DNA of 64,000 nt from Candidatus Parcubacteria bacterium (GCA_041158505.1 JBEBBG010000015.1:12642-76641), one strand, 5' to 3'; shown: positions 53,557-63,858, numbered from the stretch's first letter. Translations and numbers: made by a program. Notes: generated by a model from the sequence alone, not told the origin.

Positions 53557-55797
53557 TTATTTACCGAGCAGCTGGTTCATGAGCGACATGGTCTTTGGAC
53601 CAACCGCACCGACGTTTTCAAGTGCGTGCTCACGCTGGAATGCCTTCACTGCAGCGCGTGTAATGCTGCCGAAGTATCCGGTGATCTCTTCGTTAAAGAG
53701 TCCTGCTCGCTTGAGTGCTGCTTGTACACGTGACACGTCATCTCCTGCCGCACCCTGTGCAACGGTCTGCGTAATCTCACCTACTGGAACCGCGCTCGCG
53801 ATGGTGATTTTTTTTGTTTCAAATGCAGATTTATTAAATGCGATAGTGCTTGGGTATCCTGCTGCTCGGGCAATTTGTGTCGCATTCTTCACTTGAAGTG
53901 CCTCAAGCGTAATGCCATATTGTCCACCTTCACCTTGTCCTTCTGGATTAAGCTCTATCTGTACTGTGAACCGAACAGAGCCCCTTCCTGAATCAACCTT
54001 CCAATGCTCTGTTGGACTATGTTGTGCTGCTTGGACCTTGTTTACAGGTGTTCCGTCTGAATACGCTGCATCTACAATAAAACCGCTTTGTGTGCCCCAA
54101 AAAGCCCCATTCTTGCCATTAATGCTGTAGGAAATACCGTTTGCGGCAGATGTCCCGCCGTTCGGCAACACCTCACCAACACTATTTGGAATGTACAACG
54201 TTTCTGTTACATCAAGGTCAAACTCAATTGTGTAAACTCCTTTCTGATCATCGTTTCCCGTGGTTTCAATTTGAGTCGACATACTTACTGGTGTAATCAG
54301 TGCTAGGAGTGAATTCAAAAGCGGGTTAACTGTAAAGTAGTCAGAATGAGCACAAAGAGGTTTAAACGGAACTTCTGGGCTTGGTGTATTGTCATCACAC
54401 AATGTTATGCGGTACTGCCCTGCCTGTTGTGGTGCCAAAAGAGTTCCTCGCTCAGCCGCACGCTCAAAGGTTGACTGTCCAATGTTTCCATAATCAACCT
54501 TGATCCCTGTGGTAGATGGATACAAACTAGCAGTAATTTTATTCGGTACGTTAAGGCTTGTTCCCGTGAAGGTGAATGGGACATCACTTCCTGGTGTAAG
54601 CGTCGAACGGCCTCTGTATGTAACACTGAGAGCTTGAGCCTCGCGGCCTACAATGTTGACATTATCACTTCGATGGCCAAAAGGGCTTCGACAATAAAGA
54701 TGCGCAAGCGTGTACAAACCATCGTTTCGACCATCGATAGGCATTTGTGCGGTCACGGTTTTTGTCCCCGTAACCCCCACATTTTCTACTTCAATTTCAT
54801 TACCAGCATTATCATAAATGTATAACGTACAAGAAACGTCCGTTTCTCGCTGGCCTAGTGCAGATGCACTCCACATGAGCTCCACATTAGTCGCCTGACT
54901 AATTTTGTAGTTGTTTTCATCATCACCAGGTCGAAGGTTTACTTTGAATGTATCCTTTGAAAGGATTTCAAAGGGTTTATCACTTCGATCTGTCGCTCCT
55001 GTTTTTGTGTCTACAATTCTAATGTAGTAGCCACTTCCAGGTTCCGGCATTACTGCCTGGCCACCAACCTCAATGTCTCCGTACCATCGAATTGAACCTT
55101 TCTGTGACTCAATCACCTTGCCAATAGTTTGAAACGAACTACCACTTTTCTTTTCAAGGTACGCAACCATACCATCTCGGTGTGGCTCTGGTGTCCAGGT
55201 GATAATATTTTCACTACTAGACATCCATCGCTCACCACCATTTGGTGTAAGGAGCTTGAGTTTTGCTTGTGGGCCCGCGGGCGTGCTGGTTGGCGTTGTG
55301 CCATTACCACCGGTGCTGGTATTTCCTCCAGTGTTCGTTGTTGGCTCTGGCGCAGTAACCTTCGGCGCAACATATCGAAGTGTTGCTCGATCAGTCGCCT
55401 TTCGTCCGAGCTTGTCTGTTACCTGGTACACAAACCCAAGCACACATCCTTCTCGTGCCTTCGGAGCATCTCCAAGCTTGAAGTTTCCTGCAGCCGTTTT
55501 TCCCTGTCCCCATACTTGTCCATCCTTGATACCGCCACAGAGTGCTGGGTTGTTCACCTTAAGTGTGGTCTCAAAAGTTGCACCAGTTCCTGTACCTCGC
55601 CACACAATTGCAGGAACCGCTTCTCCTGTTGTTGCTGTGTGGTTCTGTTGTCCACCAATCGTGATTGATGCAGTTGGTGCCTTAACGACACCTGCACCAC
55701 CACGTTGTGCACTTGCTGCCGTTGGCGCAATTGTTGTGGTGATGAATGCTGTGAGGACGAGGAGGCTGATGAGTGAACGGGTGCTGATGGTTTGCAT
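53557..55797 (-). CDS. large secreted surface protein with C-terminal peptidoglycan-binding (PG_binding_1-like) domain
   Basis: ATG at 55797 gives MQTISTRSLISLLVLTAFITTTIAPTAASA signal peptide; Thr/Gly-rich linkers; C-terminal AGDDVSRVQAALKRAGLF...GYFGSITRAAVKAFQ. The track ORF is N-extended to 55938. Confidence 0.6.
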   Translation of the reverse strand: MQTISTRSLISLLVLTAFITTTIAPTAASAQRGGAGVVKAPTASITIGGQQNHTATTGEAVPAIVWRGTGTGATFETTLKVNNPALCGGIKDGQVWGQGKTAAGNFKLGDAPKAREGCVLGFVYQVTDKLGRKATDRATLRYVAPKVTAPEPTTNTGGNTSTGGNGTTPTSTPAGPQAKLKLLTPNGGERWMSSSENIITWTPEPHRDGMVAYLEKKSGSSFQTIGKVIESQKGSIRWYGDIEVGGQAVMPEPGSGYYIRIVDTKTGATDRSDKPFEILSKDTFKVNLRPGDDENNYKISQATNVELMWSASALGQRETDVSCTLYIYDNAGNEIEVENVGVTGTKTVTAQMPIDGRNDGLYTLAHLYCRSPFGHRSDNVNIVGREAQALSVTYRGRSTLTPGSDVPFTFTGTSLNVPNKITASLYPSTTGIKVDYGNIGQSTFERAAERGTLLAPQQAGQYRITLCDDNTPSPEVPFKPLCAHSDYFTVNPLLNSLLALITPVSMSTQIETTGNDDQKGVYTIEFDLDVTETLYIPNSVGEVLPNGGTSAANGISYSINGKNGAFWGTQSGFIVDAAYSDGTPVNKVQAAQHSPTEHWKVDSGRGSVRFTVQIELNPEGQGEGGQYGITLEALQVKNATQIARAAGYPSTIAFNKSAFETKKITIASAVPVGEITQTVAQGAAGDDVSRVQAALKRAGLFNEEITGYFGSITRAAVKAFQREHALENVGAVGPKTMSLMNQLLGK

Positions 55798-55848
55798 GGT
55801 AAACGGAATGTGCTTTAGGGTAATGCATTTAGTGTAACAGGATTTGTA

Positions 55849-55918
55849 AACGTAAAGGACATTCAGCAAACACAACTGTGGATAAAGGACAGTTATCCAC
55901 ATGGTATGTCCTTTACAC
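55849..55918. promoter_or_regulatory. nested palindrome carrying two perfect inverted DnaA boxes upstream of the surface-protein gene
   Basis: cGTAAAGGACAT...TGTGGATAA(55877-55885)aggacagTTATCCACA(55893-55901)tggtATGTCCTTTACac; a further GTAAAGGACA copy at about 56190. Confidence 0.55.
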
Positions 55919-56200
55919 ATTTTCAAACGAGCATACAATAGGATATGAGGTCGTTCTTCATAAGCACCTTCAAAAATTTTTCGTAAGTGTCTTTTGACTA
56001 CTTACCACCCTTGCATGTCCCGGACTTTTCCGGATTTACACGAAGCGTAGGTGTGGTTCCCAGGCAAAAAACACTTAAAACCGCCTGGATTACAATAAAA
56101 AACAAAAACTCCTCTCGTCTCAACGAGGCAAGCTTCTCCCCAAAGCACGCCTCACTAACTCAATCTGGGCGGTTCTTTCTTTAAAAAAGTAAAGGACAAG

Positions 56201-56256: not shown

Positions 56257-57729
56257 TTACTCTACGTGATGCTTCTTACGTAGCTGCTTTACTTCCTTTT
56301 CATCTTCGAGAGAAAGCTTTTCTTTCCCTTGTTTTCCAAGTCTTTCAAGATCTTCAAATGGTAGCTGGTTTAGCTCTAGTGCCCGTTTTTCAAGGTACTT
56401 CTCTGTATTTCGCTCTGGTTCTTCAAGGATTTCATCAAAAAGCGTGTACAGTATATGTCCAATCTTTGGTCCCTTATCAACTCCCATGTTCATAAGATCT
56501 GTCCCGTCGATTTTTAACATGGTCACAGAAAGCGGTGCCCGAAGCGCTTCTTCAATCATAGATTGATACTTTCTGAAGCGGTATGGCTCTTCTTTTGGTC
56601 GTCCCGTACCAATTCGGTCGCATTTCCTAAGGTTTACAAGGTCCCAGATATTATCTTCTCCCACTTTTGCAATGATGCGCCGGACAGCAGAAAGTGTGAT
56701 TTGCTCAGGATCAGCAAAAAACATGTGCCAACGCACAAGCGTGGTTACTTTTTGAATGGTTTCACGTGAAAAACGTAGATTTTCCAGAGTTTCACGTGTA
56801 ACTCGCGCACCCACCACTTCGTGGCCAAAGAAAGTTGCCTTTTTCCCTACCATTCTCTTTGTGTGAGGTTTTGCAACGTCATGAAACAGTACAGCAAGGC
56901 GTAGCTCTAAATCGTACCCCTTATCGGCGGCGTGCTGTAAAGCTCGTAGAGAATGTTCAAAAACATCGTATTTGTGAGCCTGTGTTTCTTGTGAAACACC
57001 GACCATACCCTCAAGAGCTTCAGAAACATGACGAAGCAGGCCAAGCCTTTGCATCATTACAAGTCCGAGCATTGGGTTATCAGACATAATAAGCTTTACA
57101 AACTCCTCCCTAATCCTTTCACGTGAAACGTTCCCCAGTAGGTCCCCCATTTCTTCAATCGCCTTTGCGGTATCTGATTCAATAAAGAAACCAAGCTCAG
57201 CGCTAAATCGAACGGCGCGCATAATTCGAAGGGCATCTTCTTCAAAGCGTTCCTGTGGATTTCCTACAGTACGTAGTTTTTTGGCCACCAAATCATCCTG
57301 TCCTTTATAAGGATCAACAATCTGTCCTTTAGAAAGTGCGATGGCATTTACTGTAAAATCACGTCGAGACAGATCGTCCCCTATCTTTTTGCTAAAGGTC
57401 ACCGAGTCCGGATGACGATTATCTGAGTACTTTGATTCAAGCCGGTATGGGGTAACCTCTACAATCTTCATTCGTTCATCATCGCTGCGCGTCTTTACCC
57501 CCACTGTTCCGAAGGTGTTTTCGTAGAAAGAATCAGGAAAAATCTCCTGGATTTCTTCAGGGGTAGCATTTGTTGTGGCGTCCCAATCTTTTGGTTCTCG
57601 GCCCAAAATCAGGTCCCGGACACAGCCTCCTACGAGGTACGCCTCGAAACCAGCGGCCTCAAGCCCCTCAAGCACTTCCCCAACTGGCTTTGGTATGTCA
57701 TACTTGCCTTGCTTCATACGTACCGCCAT
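56257..57729 (-). CDS. cca: CCA-adding tRNA nucleotidyltransferase with HD domain
   Basis: GGCVRDLILGREPKDWD head-domain motif; HD motif (LFHDVAKP); 490 aa. Confidence 0.85.
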   Translation of the reverse strand: MAVRMKQGKYDIPKPVGEVLEGLEAAGFEAYLVGGCVRDLILGREPKDWDATTNATPEEIQEIFPDSFYENTFGTVGVKTRSDDERMKIVEVTPYRLESKYSDNRHPDSVTFSKKIGDDLSRRDFTVNAIALSKGQIVDPYKGQDDLVAKKLRTVGNPQERFEEDALRIMRAVRFSAELGFFIESDTAKAIEEMGDLLGNVSRERIREEFVKLIMSDNPMLGLVMMQRLGLLRHVSEALEGMVGVSQETQAHKYDVFEHSLRALQHAADKGYDLELRLAVLFHDVAKPHTKRMVGKKATFFGHEVVGARVTRETLENLRFSRETIQKVTTLVRWHMFFADPEQITLSAVRRIIAKVGEDNIWDLVNLRKCDRIGTGRPKEEPYRFRKYQSMIEEALRAPLSVTMLKIDGTDLMNMGVDKGPKIGHILYTLFDEILEEPERNTEKYLEKRALELNQLPFEDLERLGKQGKEKLSLEDEKEVKQLRKKHHVE

Positions 57730-58563: not shown

Positions 58564-58658
58564 GTTTCACGTGAAACACTACTTGTTTTCATAAAATAAG
58601 CACTTTTTCTTTAATAAAGTTTCATGTGTAACGGTATATGATCGTTTCACTTGAAAAC
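58564..58658. promoter_or_regulatory. three tandem GTTTCACGTGAAAC-type palindromic operator-like sites upstream of the yraN-like gene
   Basis: Perfect 14-bp palindrome gtttcacgtgaaac at 58564-58577; variants gtttcatgtgtaac (58619-58632) and gtttcacttgaaaac (58643-58657). Confidence 0.5.
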
Positions 58659-59040
58659 AAGAAAGGATATTGGGAATTACGGAGAACAAGAAGCTGTTGA
58701 TTTTTTAGAGAAAAGGGGCTTTAAAGTGCTAAAAAGAAACTACAGACTCTTCTTTGGAGAAATCGACATTATAGCTGAGCGGGCTGGGGTTATTCACTTT
58801 GTGGAGGTAAAAACCGTTTCACAAGAAACATTTTCACGCGGAATCAAGCCCGAAGATCATGTTACACGTGAAAAGATAAGCAGAATTATGAAGGTTGCAG
58901 AGTTTTTTCTGGCAAACAGTAATCTTTTTAACAGAAAAACCCAGATTGACGTGGTCTCGATTGTTAAACCTCAAGATGTGTTACACATGAAACCGGTTAT
59001 ATATCTGTTTGAGCACGTTACTCGAGACCGTCTATCCTAG
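58651..59040 (+). CDS. YraN-family (UPF0102) PD-(D/E)xK endonuclease
   Basis: GEQEAVDFLEKRGFKVLKRNYRLFFGEIDIIAERAGVIHFVEVK matches the YraN core (GE.AE...L...G..IL.RN.R...GEIDLIA....LVFVEVK); TTG start at 58651. Confidence 0.7.
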   Translation: MKTRKDIGNYGEQEAVDFLEKRGFKVLKRNYRLFFGEIDIIAERAGVIHFVEVKTVSQETFSRGIKPEDHVTREKISRIMKVAEFFLANSNLFNRKTQIDVVSIVKPQDVLHMKPVIYLFEHVTRDRLS

Positions 59041-59173: not shown

Positions 59174-59246
59174 CGGGGCGTGGTGTAACGGCTAACATGC
59201 TCGGTTTGGGACCGAGTGACTCCGGGTTCGAATCCCGGCGCCCCGA
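59174..59246 (+). tRNA. tRNA-Pro (anticodon TGG)
   Basis: Acceptor cggggcg/cgccccg, anticodon loop uuUGGga, T-arm ccgggttcgaatcccgg. Confidence 0.8.
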
Positions 59247-59253
59247 CTACAAT

Positions 59254-60126
59254 ATGAAACTGGTAACGCATGAAGGAAGCTTCCATCTTGACGACCTCTT
59301 TGCTGTTGCGACTATTACGCTCCTCTATCCAGATATTGAGATTGTACGGACAAGAGACGCAAGCAAGTTTGGGGACGCTGATTTTGTTGTAGATGTTGGG
59401 GATATTTGTGATCCTGCGACAAACCGATTTGATCATCACCAGCATGGTGGGGCAGGAGTTCGTGAGAACGGTGTGCCATACGCGAGTTTTGGTCTGGTCT
59501 GGAAAAAGTACGGCAAAATGGTGTCTGGGGAAGAGCGAATCGCTGATTTGGTAGATAAAAAGATGGTGCAGCCGATTGATGCAGCTGATAACGGCTTCAA
59601 TATGTACCGGGAAACAAAACCTGGCCTTTCACCTTACTTGCTCGACAACGCATTCAAGGCGCTGACGCCAACGTGGCGAGATCCAGAGACGGTTGATGAT
59701 ACGTTTGCCAATTTGCTTCCACTGGCACAAGAGATTTTGCGTCGAGAGATTAAGAAGGCCCAGTATTTCTTTGAGGACACGGAAATTGTGAAGGAGGCGT
59801 ACCGTGTTGCTGAGGATAAGCGAATTATTGTCCTTGAGCATCCAATGGCGTGGAAATCGGTGATTTCGAGGAAGCGTGAGCCAGTATATGTGATTCATCC
59901 AAATCAGATGACTGGGGAGTGGATTGTGGCATGTGTACGAAAGTCTCCACAGTCACACGAAAACCGAAAGCTGCTACCAAAGGCGTGGGCAGGGAAGCGT
60001 GGTAAGGAGTTAGAGCAAGCAACTGGTGTGCAGGGCGCTGAAGCTTGCCACAATAAGCGCTTCATTGCGACAGCCTGGACACGTGAGGCCGCGATTAAGC
60101 TGGCACAGTTGGCGCTGCAGGCGTAA
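59254..60126 (+). CDS. MYG1/UPF0160-family metal-dependent hydrolase (paralog 1, canonical)
   Basis: ATG at 59254; LVTHEGSFHLDDLFAVATITLLYPDIEIVRTRD...VVDVGDICDPATNRFDHHQHG reproduces the MYG1 N-terminal metal-site motifs. The track ORF 59044..60126 reads through tRNA-Pro and is N-extended. Confidence 0.75.
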   Translation: MKLVTHEGSFHLDDLFAVATITLLYPDIEIVRTRDASKFGDADFVVDVGDICDPATNRFDHHQHGGAGVRENGVPYASFGLVWKKYGKMVSGEERIADLVDKKMVQPIDAADNGFNMYRETKPGLSPYLLDNAFKALTPTWRDPETVDDTFANLLPLAQEILRREIKKAQYFFEDTEIVKEAYRVAEDKRIIVLEHPMAWKSVISRKREPVYVIHPNQMTGEWIVACVRKSPQSHENRKLLPKAWAGKRGKELEQATGVQGAEACHNKRFIATAWTREAAIKLAQLALQA

Positions 60127-60251
60127 AAACTGCAACACCTGCGTTGGGGGGGTATTTCTTCTGGGTGCTAGTGTGGTTTGACTTTTTTATTTTTTGTTGT
60201 ATTCTTGCAACCAAACAGAAAGGGCCGTTACAACAAAACGGCTTTCGGAAC

Positions 60252-61268
60252 ATGACACAAACAAAAAAAGATCCCCGAAAGGTTCGGTGGACTTTGGTAC
60301 ATCCGAGCTTTCACTTCGATGAAGCTTTGGCGGTGTACATTCTCACTCTTTTTGGGAAGGTGCTTTTCCCGGGTATCGAAGAGGCGAGAATTGTCTTCAA
60401 GCTGCGCGATATCGAGGGAATCACCCCCGAGCAGATGAGGTGGAGTGCGGATCGCTTGCTTAACGAGCTTGGTGTGCTTTGCGTCGGCTGTCTTGGTGAG
60501 CGTGGTGCCCTCTTTGATGAGCACGGTGAAAAGCGTGCTGACGGCAAAGCTGCCTGCATGCTTGTCGCCGAGTATCTCGGAGTTGCCAAGCAACACGAAA
60601 TTCGGGATTTGCTCTGCTTTGTTGATCAGTTTGACCGGCAAGGTCATGCTCGCGAGCGTGCTGTGCTCAGAAAGGTCGACCGGTATTCTGTCGGCTTGAC
60701 GGAGTATGATATCCGCGCGCTGCTGCGCAATCAACATCGCAACGGCAGAGACGACGTGTATCTGATGCAGTGGATGCAGAGTGTGATTGATGCCTTTGTT
60801 GAGCGAACGCGCCGATTGATCAAATTGCACGGACTTGTCAAAGGGTGCAACAAAAAGCGCTCGGTCACTGGCGATGGCACGGAGATTCAAGTCTGGCTCA
60901 TTGAGACGGATGAGCACGATGCCCCCACGGTTGCACAGCAACATGGTGCGGGGGTTGTTATCGTCCGGCGCCCGACTGGTCACGCTGTTGTGGTCAACAA
61001 GAGCAAGCGAGCAGATATGTGTGCGGTTGCTCGAGAACTTCGTCAACGTGAAGCAGATGCACAAGGGTGGAGTGTTGTTGAGGGTGATACTCTCGATGGA
61101 GAACACTCTGCTTCGGTTCCCAATTGGGATTTTAACCCAACGATGGGGCACATCTTCAATACTGACGAGCAGAAGGTGTACGACGTGGTGCCGACGGCAC
61201 TCTCCGACGAAGAACTGCTGGACATGGTTGCTGGTCACCTTCGAATTCTCGAGAAGACCAGCCTTTGA
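60252..61268 (+). CDS. divergent MYG1-like protein (paralog 2)
   Basis: ATG at 60252; WTLVHPSFHFDEALAVYILTLFGKVLFPGIEEARIVF...VGCLGERGALFDEHGE parallels the MYG1 motif order; the gene looks noticeably GC-rich by eye. Confidence 0.55.
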   Translation: MTQTKKDPRKVRWTLVHPSFHFDEALAVYILTLFGKVLFPGIEEARIVFKLRDIEGITPEQMRWSADRLLNELGVLCVGCLGERGALFDEHGEKRADGKAACMLVAEYLGVAKQHEIRDLLCFVDQFDRQGHARERAVLRKVDRYSVGLTEYDIRALLRNQHRNGRDDVYLMQWMQSVIDAFVERTRRLIKLHGLVKGCNKKRSVTGDGTEIQVWLIETDEHDAPTVAQQHGAGVVIVRRPTGHAVVVNKSKRADMCAVARELRQREADAQGWSVVEGDTLDGEHSASVPNWDFNPTMGHIFNTDEQKVYDVVPTALSDEELLDMVAGHLRILEKTSL

Positions 61269-61339
61269 GGTTTTGGTTTTTGCCGAAACCGTTTTCTTTT
61301 AAGGTTTAGATGGGGTTTTTATGGGTCTAGTTAGGTAAG

Positions 61340-61368
61340 TTGATTTTTATATAATTATGTGTTATAAT
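61340..61368 (+). promoter_or_regulatory. near-consensus sigma70-type promoter (TTGATT-17-TATAAT with TGn) for the GC-rich OB-fold gene
   Basis: -35 ttgatt at 61340-61345, 17-bp spacer, tgtTATAAT at 61360-61368; GGAGG SD at 61416-61420, 8 nt before the ATG at 61429. Confidence 0.55.
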
Positions 61369-61428
61369 AAAAAAAGAGGGTAAGCAAGACGCGAGCCCGA
61401 ACCTAGTCTCAATCAGGAGGTACTAAAA

Positions 61429-62373
61429 ATGAGCAAGCGCTCTTTGAAATCGCAAAGGGGTCGCCAAAATGGCGGCCAAAACAATCAACCAAACCGAACC
61501 ACCAACACGGAGACTCTCGTCCCCTTCAAGGGAATTGAGGTCTACGTCGAGGCGCGAGGCCGTTCAATCGGCTTCGAGCAGACGGGAGAAAAGAGAAAGC
61601 TTCAGTACGGAGTCCTTCCGGACTTTGGCCACGAGCAAATCAAGCTTGTCGCCCGAATCGACCCCGAATGCGCCGCCCTCAAGGCGGGACGACTGGTCGT
61701 CTTCAACCGCCGCCAGGACCAACGTCTTGATGTGCACATGTCCAGTGCCAACAAGAGCGGACAGATTGTGCACCGCCAAGCGGTGCGTATCTCTCGCTCG
61801 AATGGTGGAACGAAGGTGTCGGTGGACCACACCACCAACAACATCTACGTTGCCTTCCTCAGCTCGGCTGGGGTCTGGATCAAAGCAGTCACGCTGGTTC
61901 GGCAGTCTGGCACGTTCTACGTGCTGATGCAGGACCAGTACACCGTCGAATCGTTCTTGAACGATGACGGCAACGTCACCCTTCCTGGCTTTTTCAGGAT
62001 TCACGGTGGGCTGCCCGACTTCGCTCGGTTGCCTGTTGTCCGCGACTTCTTCGGGGGTCTCGCCGCAGAAGAAAGAGCTACCCTTGAGCATGAGAGGAAG
62101 TATGTCCCCACAGACTACCACTTCTCCGACCTTGGGGAGAACGAACTCTACGTCAAGTTGTGGACCTTACGCCGTAACAACGGCGTTGGAATCCTCAAAG
62201 ATGGAACCCAGGTGCGGCTCTTCTGGGCAGACATTCGGGGTGAAGGTCCGCATGCATTGCGGACGGGACAGCGAGTGCGTTTCGAGCGGCTGGACAGGAT
62301 CTCGGATGAAGCCCGTGCCGCTGCGGGAACGCAGCTGTATTACGATGCTCGTGGCCTCACGGTCATCGAGTAA
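61429..62373 (+). CDS. GC-rich protein with basic N-terminal tail and C-terminal cold-shock/OB-fold-like domain
   Basis: N-terminus MSKRSLKSQRGRQNGGQNNQPNRTTN; C-terminal NGVGILKDGTQVRLFWADIRGEGPHALRTGQRVRFERLD resembles the CSD pattern GFGFI..DG..VFVH.S.I...G...L.EGQ.V.FE; the gene looks distinctly GC-richer than its neighbours. Confidence 0.55.
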   Translation: MSKRSLKSQRGRQNGGQNNQPNRTTNTETLVPFKGIEVYVEARGRSIGFEQTGEKRKLQYGVLPDFGHEQIKLVARIDPECAALKAGRLVVFNRRQDQRLDVHMSSANKSGQIVHRQAVRISRSNGGTKVSVDHTTNNIYVAFLSSAGVWIKAVTLVRQSGTFYVLMQDQYTVESFLNDDGNVTLPGFFRIHGGLPDFARLPVVRDFFGGLAAEERATLEHERKYVPTDYHFSDLGENELYVKLWTLRRNNGVGILKDGTQVRLFWADIRGEGPHALRTGQRVRFERLDRISDEARAAAGTQLYYDARGLTVIE

Positions 62374-62402
62374 ACCGGTTGATTGCCAAAACCTTGCGAA
62401 TT

Positions 62403-62441
62403 CCGCCCCCGAGTTTCGGCTCGTGGGGCGGTGTTTCTTTT
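62403..62441 (+). terminator. Rho-independent terminator after the OB-fold gene
   Basis: ccgcccc-(gagtttcggctcg)-tggggcgg then tgtttcttttt. Confidence 0.7.
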
Positions 62442-62471
62442 TAGGAGGAGAAAAAAAGTTGCGATACAATA

Positions 62472-63446
62472 TTGGGTATGCCAATCACCTCAATTCTCCT
62501 ACCAACACGTCCACAAGTAGATACGCTCGTTGGACTTTTTTTGCTTAAACAGTTTGGTGAGGCGCAGTATCCAGGTATTAAAGATGCGACTGTAATTTTT
62601 AACCAGCAGGACTTAGAATCAAAAGATTGGGTAGCACATGAAACAGAAGGACGTTTGCTTGTTGATATGGGAGGCGGACCACTCGATCACCACGTGCAGG
62701 GTGAGCAGGTTTGTTTGTCGCAAATCGTCGCGAAGCTTTTAGGGCAAGAGAAAAACAAAGCAATTACTAAGCTTGTAGAGCTTGCGCGTCGAGATGATGT
62801 AGATGGGCAAGGAACGCTTTCAGAAGATGCAATTGATCGAGCATTTGGTATGAGTGGTCTCGTCGTTTCCCTTAATCGTGTGTACCATGATCAGCCAAAC
62901 AAGGTGTACGAGTTAGTGACGCCACTGATTGAAGCTCATTACAAAGAACAGGTAAAACGCACAGAAGAACTGCCTAAACTTTTTAATACATTGCTTGCAT
63001 CTGGTGCCGCTCAAAAAGCAACTGCAACACATCGAGGCAAAAAAGTTCAGATTGCGTTGTACTCATCTGATGAACCAAGCCTTGCGAGTTACTTACGCTC
63101 ATTTGCGGGTGGGAATTTTGATGTTCTGATTCAATGTAAAGAAAGTGGACACGTAAACATTCTGACGCACACAAATAGGCGTCCAGATTTGCGCTCGCTT
63201 GCAGTTATAATTCGAAAAGCAGAGCTCATGCTTTCAGGAGGGGGAGACGGCATTAGTGCAGAACAGCTTGCCGCACCTGGGCGACTTGATACGGTGCCGC
63301 AGTGGTACTTTGATCTAGCCACCAATTCACTTCAAAATGGTGGTGTTACGCCTGGAAAAATTCCGAAAACCGCTATTCCTAAAGAAAAATTACTTAATTT
63401 AGTGAAAATTGGACTCGAGGAAAGTATGTGGAAGCCCGTTTCGTAG
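62472..63446 (+). CDS. divergent MYG1-like protein (paralog 3; N-terminal His/Asp-Glu motif lost)
   Basis: TTG at 62472 (ATG at 62478); LLKQFGEAQYPGIKDATVIF and LLVDMGGGPLDHHVQGE align with paralog 2 FGKVLFPGIEEARIVF / LGERGALFDEHGE, but the HPSFHFDE block is replaced by LPTRPQVDT. Confidence 0.5.
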   Translation: MGMPITSILLPTRPQVDTLVGLFLLKQFGEAQYPGIKDATVIFNQQDLESKDWVAHETEGRLLVDMGGGPLDHHVQGEQVCLSQIVAKLLGQEKNKAITKLVELARRDDVDGQGTLSEDAIDRAFGMSGLVVSLNRVYHDQPNKVYELVTPLIEAHYKEQVKRTEELPKLFNTLLASGAAQKATATHRGKKVQIALYSSDEPSLASYLRSFAGGNFDVLIQCKESGHVNILTHTNRRPDLRSLAVIIRKAELMLSGGGDGISAEQLAAPGRLDTVPQWYFDLATNSLQNGGVTPGKIPKTAIPKEKLLNLVKIGLEESMWKPVS

Positions 63447-63471
63447 TATTTCTTTTTGCTATACTTACCCT

Positions 63472-63858
63472 GTGGAAACAAAACGATTTACACGTGTGGT
63501 AGAGCACTTTACCTGTGAGCACTGTGGTGCTGCAAATGATGGTAATGGGTACACAAATCACTGCCACCAGTGTCTGTGGTCTAAACACGTGGACATCAAT
63601 CCTGGTGATAGAGCCGCAACCTGTGGTGGCCTTATGAAGCCAACGGCAATTGAAAACACCAGTGGCGAGTACGTCCTGACGCACACCTGTGAGCGTTGCA
63701 AGCATCAAAAACGAAACAAAGTTGCAGCAAATGATAACTTTGACACTGTTGTGTCACTCGCGGTGTCACTCGCGGATGATTACGCTACAGGTTCCGTAAC
63801 AAGAGCTCCGTTAGGCGCGGCGCAGCAGATGACGCAAACGATGCAGCCTGCGATGTAA
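63472..63858 (+). CDS. RNHCP-domain-like zinc-ribbon protein
   Basis: FTCEHCGAANDGNGYTNHCHQCLWSKHVDINPGDRAATCGGLMKP...HTCERCKH: Cys pairs and a NHC(H/P)xCLWSxHVD block recalled from the RNHCP domain. No ATG; GTG at 63472 is in frame with the track ORF 63409 (TTG). Confidence 0.45.
   Translation: METKRFTRVVEHFTCEHCGAANDGNGYTNHCHQCLWSKHVDINPGDRAATCGGLMKPTAIENTSGEYVLTHTCERCKHQKRNKVAANDNFDTVVSLAVSLADDYATGSVTRAPLGAAQQMTQTMQPAM

Follow-up and report, generated by a model that had tools for sequence, protein, structure and literature searches.

Does a row of three genes in a 64,000-nucleotide (nt) stretch of Candidatus Parcubacteria DNA (GCA_041158505.1, JBEBBG010000015.1:12642-76641; "the window" hereafter means the whole of this stretch) represent one MYG1/UPF0160 gene that was copied and then decayed, or have genes of older and separate descent come to lie together there? 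The genes belong to a locus at 58.6-63.9 kb on the plus strand, and a preliminary description had read them as a tandem array of three progressively divergent MYG1-like paralogues, the last without its N-terminal metal site. The three open reading frames (ORFs) lie where that description placed them, and the motifs quoted for each are present in the translations. The array itself is not contiguous, as an unrelated conserved gene, here called X, lies between the second and third members. The genes are as follows, with lengths in amino acids (aa); identifiers of the form L001 denote comparison contigs or loci.

59254-60126, plus strand: P1, MYG1/UPF0160 protein, 290 aa (Pfam PF03690, E 1.2e-67)
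60252-61268, plus strand: P2, type A, two-domain DHH/DHHA1-fold protein, 338 aa (AF2 fold; motif signature)
61429-62373, plus strand: X, conserved protein, 314 aa, no family (ORF, with orthologues in L001, L002, and L004)
62472-63446, plus strand: P3, type B, two-domain DHH/DHHA1-fold protein, 324 aa (AF2 fold; motif signature)

Judged by its profile scores and motifs, P1 is a bona fide MYG1, as had been proposed. It passes the PF03690 gathering threshold at full length (229 bits against a cut-off of 22.1, profile positions 1-318 of 318) and matches the solved human MYG1 exonuclease (24ah) with an E value of 4.8e-34. Both MYG1 motifs (motif I, H-x4-H-x-D-[DE]; motif III, D-H-H-Q) are present, in the form THEGSFHLDD...NRFDHHQ, and P1 has all residues invariant in a 35-sequence alignment of the family (H6, H11, D13, D47, D60-H61-H62, D109/D112, and H266). 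Human MYG1 is a 3'-5' RNA exonuclease that depends on its DHH motif and prefers RNA (PMC6582341).

The same Pfam comparison sets P2 and P3 apart: neither matches any Pfam model (PF03690, PF01368/PF02272, and PF09828 included) or NCBIfam model at E<=1, and PF03690 matches 0 of 90 type-A and 0 of 33 type-B relatives. P2 and P3 are, on pairwise and profile evidence alike, homologous to each other; BLASTP aligns them end to end at 25% identity (E 9e-18), hhalign aligns their families at 99.7% (E 9.5e-26), and reciprocal hidden Markov model (HMM) matches between the two families range from 1e-22 to 1e-62. Between P1 and P2 there is a single local match of 28 residues, in the SFHxDE region (E 0.002); P1 and P3 have no pairwise match, and P1 lacks HMM-level similarity to either protein.

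A relationship to MYG1 does emerge when profiles are compared with profiles. Against MYG1, hhalign returns 4.7% for a small P2-only alignment, 76% for the P3 family, 90% for P2 and P3 together, and 94% (E 1.6e-7, 151 columns) for the 90-sequence type-A alignment; in the type-A comparison the profiles align motif for motif from I to IV, the matched part being the N-terminal domain only. On this evidence P2 and P3 are only remotely related to MYG1, through the metal-binding N-terminal domain. The earlier label of MYG1/UPF0160-like holds in the sense of remote homology, profile alignment having found similarity both to UPF0160 and between P2 and P3, but neither protein is a UPF0160 member. Likenesses to MYG1 comprise the order of motifs I-IV, the unusual motif I shared by type A (H-x3-H-x-D-E), and a prediction, for all of them, of two-domain metal-dependent phosphoesterases of about 300 aa; type A differs in having DEH rather than DHH and a motif II Gly rather than Asp, type B lacks the motif I histidines, and the C-terminal domain of P2 and P3 has no detectable sequence similarity to that of MYG1.

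Structure prediction places P2 and P3 more closely. The AF2 models are confident (pLDDT 91.8 for P3 and 86.4 for P2) and consist of an N-terminal alpha/beta domain with a long helical insertion, followed by a C-terminal alpha/beta domain. The top structural matches of both models are DHH/DHHA1 phosphoesterases (NrnA, NrN/NrnB, PggH, GdpP, RecJ, PPX1, and family II pyrophosphatase), and Cdc45 is present beside RecJ among the fold matches; the predicted fold of P2 and P3 is that of two-domain DHH + DHHA1 proteins. The sequence of the best structural match, 6mtz, is not that of a MYG1. With the classical DHH/DHHA1 families (PF01368/PF02272), P2 and P3 share the N-terminal metal-binding domain and the C-terminal DHHA1-like alpha/beta domain, and type B shares motif III (DHH). 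The corresponding sequence models do not detect them: PF01368 matches none of the 90 type-A or 33 type-B members, PF02272 likewise matches none of P2, P3, and their relatives at E<=1, and profile searches of PDB sequences gave only spurious His-tag or REV1 matches for types A and B, and MYG1 only for the MYG1 profile. Read against the four N-terminal DHH motifs (DxD, D, DHH, D), type B is D/D/DHH/D(D) and type A is HxDE/G/DEH/D. Type-D relatives have the classical HxxPDxD motif I and a weak, below-cut-off match to PF01368 (E 0.003-0.02).

The types named above were defined from motif surveys and alignments of homologues. A phmmer search with P2 over 1.84 billion representatives (E<=1e-3) yielded 351 clusters at 50% identity, and the search with P3 yielded 116 clusters at 90% identity, assigned to Patescibacteria wherever a taxon is named. 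H..H.DE together with G...FDEH occurs in 127 of 149 representatives found with P2, and a minority have P..PQ.D together with D...FDHH. The four types are distinguished as follows.

Type A, including P2: motif I H-x-x-P-H-[LF]-D-E; motif II G-V-G-G-G (Asp replaced by Gly); motif III F-D-E-H
Type B, including P3: motif I P-[TN]-[RK]-P-Q-x-D; motif II D-x-G-G-G; motif III F-D-H-H; motif IV R-R-D-D
Type C: motif I P-P-I-D-K; motif II I-D-[IL]-G; no DHH
Type D, of about 275 aa, in Chloroflexota and some Patescibacteria: classical motif I H-x-x-P-D-x-D; V-D-x-G-G-G; F-D-H-H

Taken by their motifs and predicted fold, types A-D are an unnamed superfamily, common in Patescibacteria and with outliers in Chloroflexota, which is to say a new family within a known superfamily. 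In a neighbour-joining (NJ) tree of 74 sequences (Poisson-corrected, 100 bootstraps), the P2 clade is nested in type A, with first relatives of that type in 99 of 100 bootstraps, and P3 is nested deep in type B, whose clade excludes P2 in 91 of 100. Against type-B proteins from other lineages P3 has 40-90% identity, against P2 about 22%; P2 is a fast-evolving type-A member, and a metagenome-assembled genome of a "Candidatus Parcubacteria bacterium" encodes a hypothetical protein with 100% identity to it. These placements indicate that the separation of P2 from P3 is an ancient split and that the two are not recent duplicates, contrary to the progressive divergence by tandem duplication that the preliminary description had envisaged. 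More distant genomes carry the type-B gene without MYG1 or P2, which, together with the tree, argues that the arrangement in the window is an assembly of anciently separate paralogues.

Proteins of type C (335-440 aa) adjoin type B in many Patescibacteria, mostly upstream of it (L017, L018, L022, L027, L035, L038, L039, L041, L044, L046, L048, L049, L053, L054, and L056). They keep the Asp residues of motifs I and II, but DHH is replaced by KY and RRDD by NKNN; they look like pseudoenzyme partners, and type C is probably catalytically dead.

Whether P2 and P3 are themselves degenerate can be judged from which residues they keep. P2 reads VHPSFHFDE...FDEHGEK, with H17, H21, D23, and E24 in motif I, the invariant G79 in place of the motif II Asp, D89-E90-H91 in motif III, and D128 in motif IV. 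P3 reads LPTRPQVDT...LDHHVQGE, with P-T-R-P-Q-x-D17 as motif I, D65 as motif II, D72-H73-H74 as motif III, and R107-D108-D109 as motif IV, and in its C-terminal domain H227, R248, E251, W278, D281, N285, and N289-G-G. Of the MYG1 motif pair, P2 keeps motif I but reads DEH at motif III, and P3 keeps DHH, with the Asp alone of motif I. Equivalent core positions, as aligned by hhalign, are:

Motif I Asp: D13 in P1, D23 in P2, D17 in P3
Motif III Asp: D60 in P1, D89 in P2, D72 in P3
Motif III last His: H62 in P1, H91 in P2, H74 in P3
Motif IV Asp: D112 in P1, D128 in P2, D109 in P3

In every active-looking subfamily these four core positions vary little or not at all. The invariant columns of 33 type-B and 90 type-A sequences hold every residue named here for P3 and P2, and both proteins keep all of them. 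The remaining positions vary by subfamily: type A shares the motif I His pair with MYG1 but has Gly for the motif II Asp and Glu for the first His of motif III, whereas type B has the latter two residues, as MYG1 does, and no motif I His pair. In family II pyrophosphatase and RecJ-type enzymes, such positions supply the ligands of a two-metal centre. The auxiliary metal ligands of types A and B look complementary, and MYG1 has all of them; we infer that types A and B build the metal centre from different subsets of ligands and remain catalytic. Since each subfamily holds its own variants without exception, we regard P2 and P3 as most probably active phosphoesterases that depend on metal. The changed sites to which attention had been drawn earlier, DEH in P2 and PTRPQxD in P3, are real as sequences, but they are invariant signatures across hundreds of diverged sequences rather than signs of decay.

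Clues to the substrate come from domain fusions. Among the 116 type-B homologues, 26 are 450-541 aa long and have an extra N- or C-terminal domain with the two HxT motifs typical of 2H phosphoesterases; eight of these have precomputed Pfam matches to LigT_PEase, 2_5_RNA_ligase2, or tRNA_lig_CPD, and a direct scan of the extra domains matched LigT_PEase (E 1.8e-12) and tRNA_lig_CPD (E 5.9e-6). The orthologue of P3 in the syntenic relative L002 (L002:8152-9645) is a protein of 497 aa with an N-terminal 2H domain containing ETHVTL and LPHVTL. A 2',3'-cyclic phosphate can form only on ribose, and the fusions accordingly point towards RNA or ribonucleotides as substrates. Type-B orthologues in this respect resemble the 2H end-healing enzymes (LigT/ThpR and the cyclic phosphodiesterase, CPD, of fungal Trl1) in pairing a cyclic phosphodiesterase with a second end-modifying module; the fungal tRNA ligase Trl1 is reported to join CPD with kinase and ligase in one polypeptide. 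In the type-B fusions, by contrast, the partner module is a DHH-like phosphoesterase and not a kinase/ligase or an HD/DxDxT phosphatase.

Gene neighbourhoods were surveyed by scanning 50 independent type-B loci with HMMs built here, with the following recurrent partners.

2H domain, fused: 10 of 50 loci, plus 2 with a separate adjacent 2H gene
Second superfamily paralogue: 18 of 50 loci, most within about 1.2 kb (L021 at 2.4 kb)
MYG1: 5 of 50 loci, 67-2322 bp away and in differing orientations
RNHCP gene: 4 of 50 loci, 12-46 bp downstream
YraN within 10 kb: 7 of 50 loci

The second paralogue is mostly type C, with a strong type A in L010, L021, and the window. That type B so often adjoins a second paralogue suggests that the paralogues work together, possibly as hetero-oligomers. 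The RNHCP gene follows or overlaps the type-B 3' end both in the window's clade (L001, L002, and L004, the ORF in L002 being present though uncalled) and in distant loci (L021:4442-4801, L040:9180-9578, and L042:10921-11265). YraN is a recurrent neighbour of the superfamily as a whole: in Chloroflexota it lies upstream of, and on the same strand as, type D, at about 150-270 bp in four loci and 1-3 kb in others. The recurrence of such pairs in Chloroflexota extends the YraN linkage across two phyla.

The loci with a YraN/type-D pair are L071, L073, L076, L077, L080, L082, L087, L089, and L090. Among the 50 loci, none of the 10 with a 2H fusion is one of the 18 with an adjacent second paralogue (hypergeometric P about 0.006, ignoring phylogenetic non-independence); L002, of the window's clade, has both.

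The preliminary description had suggested that these genes, lying near tRNA genes, YraN, and the CCA enzyme, may be an RNA-end processing module. The RNA-end part of that idea is plausible and gains independent support from the 2H fusions and from the recurrent adjacency of MYG1 to type B in other lineages, but for two of the neighbours it is not supported. YraN is reported, in a preprint, to be a single-stranded DNA (ssDNA) endonuclease resolving transformation D-loops (bioRxiv 10.1101/2024.02.06.579203), and the CCA-enzyme gene is on the opposite strand and, in the neighbourhoods examined, was not seen beside these genes outside the window's clade.

We therefore favour, with moderate confidence, a reading in which the locus combines one MYG1 with anciently diverged type-A and type-B proteins that are active phosphoesterases, probably with the 3' ends of RNA or nucleotides as their target once a 2',3'-cyclic phosphate has been opened. 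The 2H domain, fused or adjacent in about a quarter of orthologues and in the close relative L002 among them, would open the cyclic phosphate; the type-B DHH-like domain would then take off the remaining 2'/3'-phosphate or the terminal nucleotide. Types A and B would in this way hydrolyse phosphoester bonds at the 3' termini of RNA or oligonucleotides, and the neighbouring MYG1 would supply 3'-5' exoribonuclease trimming. A more elaborate version is improbable in our estimation: types A, B, and C might form hetero-oligomers from incomplete, complementary sites and, with 2H, MYG1, and RNHCP, constitute a Patescibacteria-specific RNA 3'-end repair system that returns tRNAs ending in a 2',3'-cyclic phosphate to a 3'-OH suitable for the CCA-adding enzyme.

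Several observations weigh against the favoured reading and temper it. Type A replaces two canonical metal ligands of the DHH family, and its activity is assumed from conservation. The link to MYG1 rests on profile-profile comparison, HMM-versus-sequence matches being marginal (E about 1e-3 in a 400-sequence set, and E 0.01-10 with a MYG1 HMM built here), and the fold matches come from PDB libraries without the solved MYG1 entries (24ah and others). P3 itself starts at its DHH-like domain without a 2H domain, a further difference from the 2H end-healing enzymes, and a tblastn search with six 2H domains found no 2H gene in the 64 kb. Most type-B loci have none of the named partners adjacent, the 50 loci are not strictly independent phylogenetically, and the adjacency of YraN points to DNA as much as to RNA. 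Finally, the sole Pfam model touched by type-A relatives is ChrB_C (PF09828), matched by 10 of 90 at E<=1 with a best value of 1.1e-6.

The most serious competitor, which we consider unlikely but well worth weighing, casts types A and B as Patescibacterial equivalents of NrnA/NrnB/Orn or pAp phosphatase, engaged in housekeeping turnover of nanoRNA and nucleotides; the substrates would be RNAs of 2-5 nt, pAp, or 2',3'-cyclic and 3'-nucleotides destined for salvage, and the enzymes would not be repairing the termini of longer molecules such as tRNA. A housekeeping enzyme would be expected to be widely distributed without fixed neighbours, and these genes do occur widely, mostly alone and in changing surroundings; a 2H domain is equally able to open 2',3'-cyclic nucleotides. 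To our knowledge, Patescibacteria lack de novo nucleotide synthesis, which we also count in favour of turnover. Such a role does not readily account, however, for the way in which MYG1, RNHCP, and tRNA genes recur beside them, and the complete lack of PF01368 membership in types A and B also speaks against it.

Processing of DNA ends, in which the type-A and type-B proteins would act as RecJ-like ssDNA exonucleases or phosphatases alongside YraN in recombination or natural transformation, is a poor fit and in our view improbable. It draws on the YraN neighbourhoods described above (in L041 YraN is 39 bp away, and in some of the many Chloroflexota loci it is directly adjacent to type D), on the reported activity of YraN as a transformation D-loop nuclease, on the presence of dprA and topA near the type-B gene of L005, and on RecJ and Cdc45 among the fold matches. 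Against this, the phosphodiesters on which 2H domains act, 2',3'-cyclic or 2'-5' on ribose, cannot be formed by DNA, so that the fusions argue for RNA or ribonucleotides; MYG1, the other recurrent neighbour, prefers RNA; and in the window a tRNA gene separates YraN from the genes considered here, the YraN function itself coming from a preprint on Proteobacteria.

Less probable again, and doubtful as an account of these two genes, is the view that one or both products are non-catalytic, either as ligand-sensing or scaffold domains (ChrB_C-like binders of oxyanion or phosphate) or as pseudoenzyme partners. The nearest curated model at the HMM level is indeed ChrB_C, not MYG1; besides the type-A matches, type-D proteins match it weakly, with L074 alone above the curated threshold (28.6 vs 25 bits), and there is one weak type-B match, the match covering the N-terminal domain of the relatives. 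ChrB is a chromate-sensing transcription factor without reported hydrolase activity (PMC3817168), its C-terminal domain being the ligand sensor, and ChrB_C could itself be an oxyanion binder that derives from DHH proteins. In type A the bridging Asp is missing, as is one His, the clearly degenerate type C, without DHH, stands beside type B in many genomes, and DHH-fold pseudoenzymes are known, such as the Cdc45 found among the fold matches. P2 and P3 themselves do not match the ChrB_C model, however, and both lack a DNA-binding domain; across type-A and type-B sequences about 25% identical the core Asp and His residues do not vary, which is the pattern of an active site, and P2 and P3 keep every invariant residue.

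Local triplication of MYG1 with progressive divergence, P3 having lost its N-terminal metal site and being changed in activity or inactive, is suggested by the shared strand, close spacing, falling identity along the array, P1-P2 match at SFHxDE, and P2-P3 similarity, but it is contradicted by the tree, which puts P2 and P3 in different and widely distributed subfamilies, by the retention of PTRPQxD in 33 of 33 aligned type-B sequences from many Patescibacteria lineages (most without a nearby MYG1 or P2), by the lack of HMM-level similarity between P1 and the other two, by the interruption of the array by X, and by strongly different codon-position GC (GC3 0.56 in P2 vs 0.35 in P3), and is highly improbable.

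Patescibacteria (CPR) make up a large share of bacterial diversity and have tiny genomes with many conserved genes of unknown function. The present analysis delimits a superfamily there that is unannotated, with no model in Pfam, NCBIfam, PADLOC, or PHROG, and a literature search found no description of the P2/P3 family, of DHH-2H fusions, or of the RNHCP domain. New here are the assignment to the DHH/DHHA1 fold, the subfamilies with complementary active-site variants, and the ties to 2H domains by fusion and to MYG1 by neighbourhood. Were the proposed activity true, it would offer a first functional handle on bacterial MYG1-type enzymes and a pointer to healing or recycling of RNA 3' ends in reduced genomes; the subfamily pattern is also a natural experiment on the exchangeable metal ligands of the DHH active site.

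The three genes sit among the following further features of the window.

56257-57729, minus strand: CCA-adding enzyme/poly(A) polymerase family protein with HD domain (ORF; the L001 orthologue matches PF01743, PF12627, and PF01966)
58651-59040, plus strand: YraN/UPF0102, PD-(D/E)XK endonuclease (Pfam PF02021, E 3e-23)
59174-59247, plus strand: tRNA-Pro(UGG) (ARAGORN; Rfam tRNA, 64 bits; sequence and four-way alignment)
61269-61290, plus strand: terminator-like hairpin and T-run, directly after the P2 stop codon (consensus match only)
61340-61368, plus strand: best sigma-70-like promoter match of the region (10/12, extended -10), upstream of X (consensus match only)
63409-63858, plus strand: RNHCP-domain zinc-ribbon protein (Pfam PF12647, E 4.7e-26)

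The order YraN - tRNA-Pro - MYG1 - P2 - X - P3 - RNHCP is kept in three related metagenomic contigs (L001, L002, and L004). tRNA-Arg and tRNA-Gly lie on the plus strand after the minus-strand CCA-enzyme gene. The RNHCP ORF as listed overlaps the 3' end of P3, and its real start is possibly further downstream. GC3 varies along the locus (P1 0.50, P2 0.56, X 0.69, and P3 0.35, against 0.47 +/- 0.08 for the long ORFs of the window). The terminator-like and promoter-like sites are only a suggestion of two transcription units, tRNA-Pro-P1-P2 and X-P3-RNHCP, the regional total of terminator-like sites being not above that of shuffled controls. An Rfam scan of the window returned three tRNAs, two sub-threshold leader matches, and nothing else. 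PADLOC gave 0 matches among six proteins (P1, P2, X, P3, RNHCP, and YraN), and a PHROG scan of the same set without YraN gave a single marginal match, to RNHCP; as far as these searches reach, no known defence or phage family is involved.

The start codon of MYG1 follows the discriminator base of tRNA-Pro by 7-10 nt, a spacing conserved in four genomes (window 59174-59256; L001:4934-5016; L002:4905-4988; L004:924-1004). In the window the tRNA is followed by CTA, so no CCA is encoded, and the L004 copy encodes CCA. If tRNA-Pro and MYG1 are co-transcribed, 3' processing of the tRNA would give an almost leaderless MYG1 mRNA.

Orthologues of X occupy the same position in L001, L002, and L004 at 38-72% identity. 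The protein has an N-terminal tail rich in Gly, Gln, Asn, and Arg, its GC3 is the highest among the window's long ORFs, and it has no match in Pfam, NCBIfam, PADLOC, or PHROG. Genes upstream of type B in L005 and L008 were considered, with X, as conserved partners and rejected, as they have no similarity to one another or to X. A weakly X-like ORF (E 2e-10) lies at L042:7519-8553, between YraN and a 2H-fused type-B gene.

At 53557-55938 on the minus strand, upstream of the CCA-enzyme gene, is an ORF of 793 aa whose N-terminal region is rich in Thr and Gly. Its orthologues in L001 and L002 have a C-terminal peptidoglycan-binding domain (PF01471), and the product is probably a secreted or cell-surface protein.

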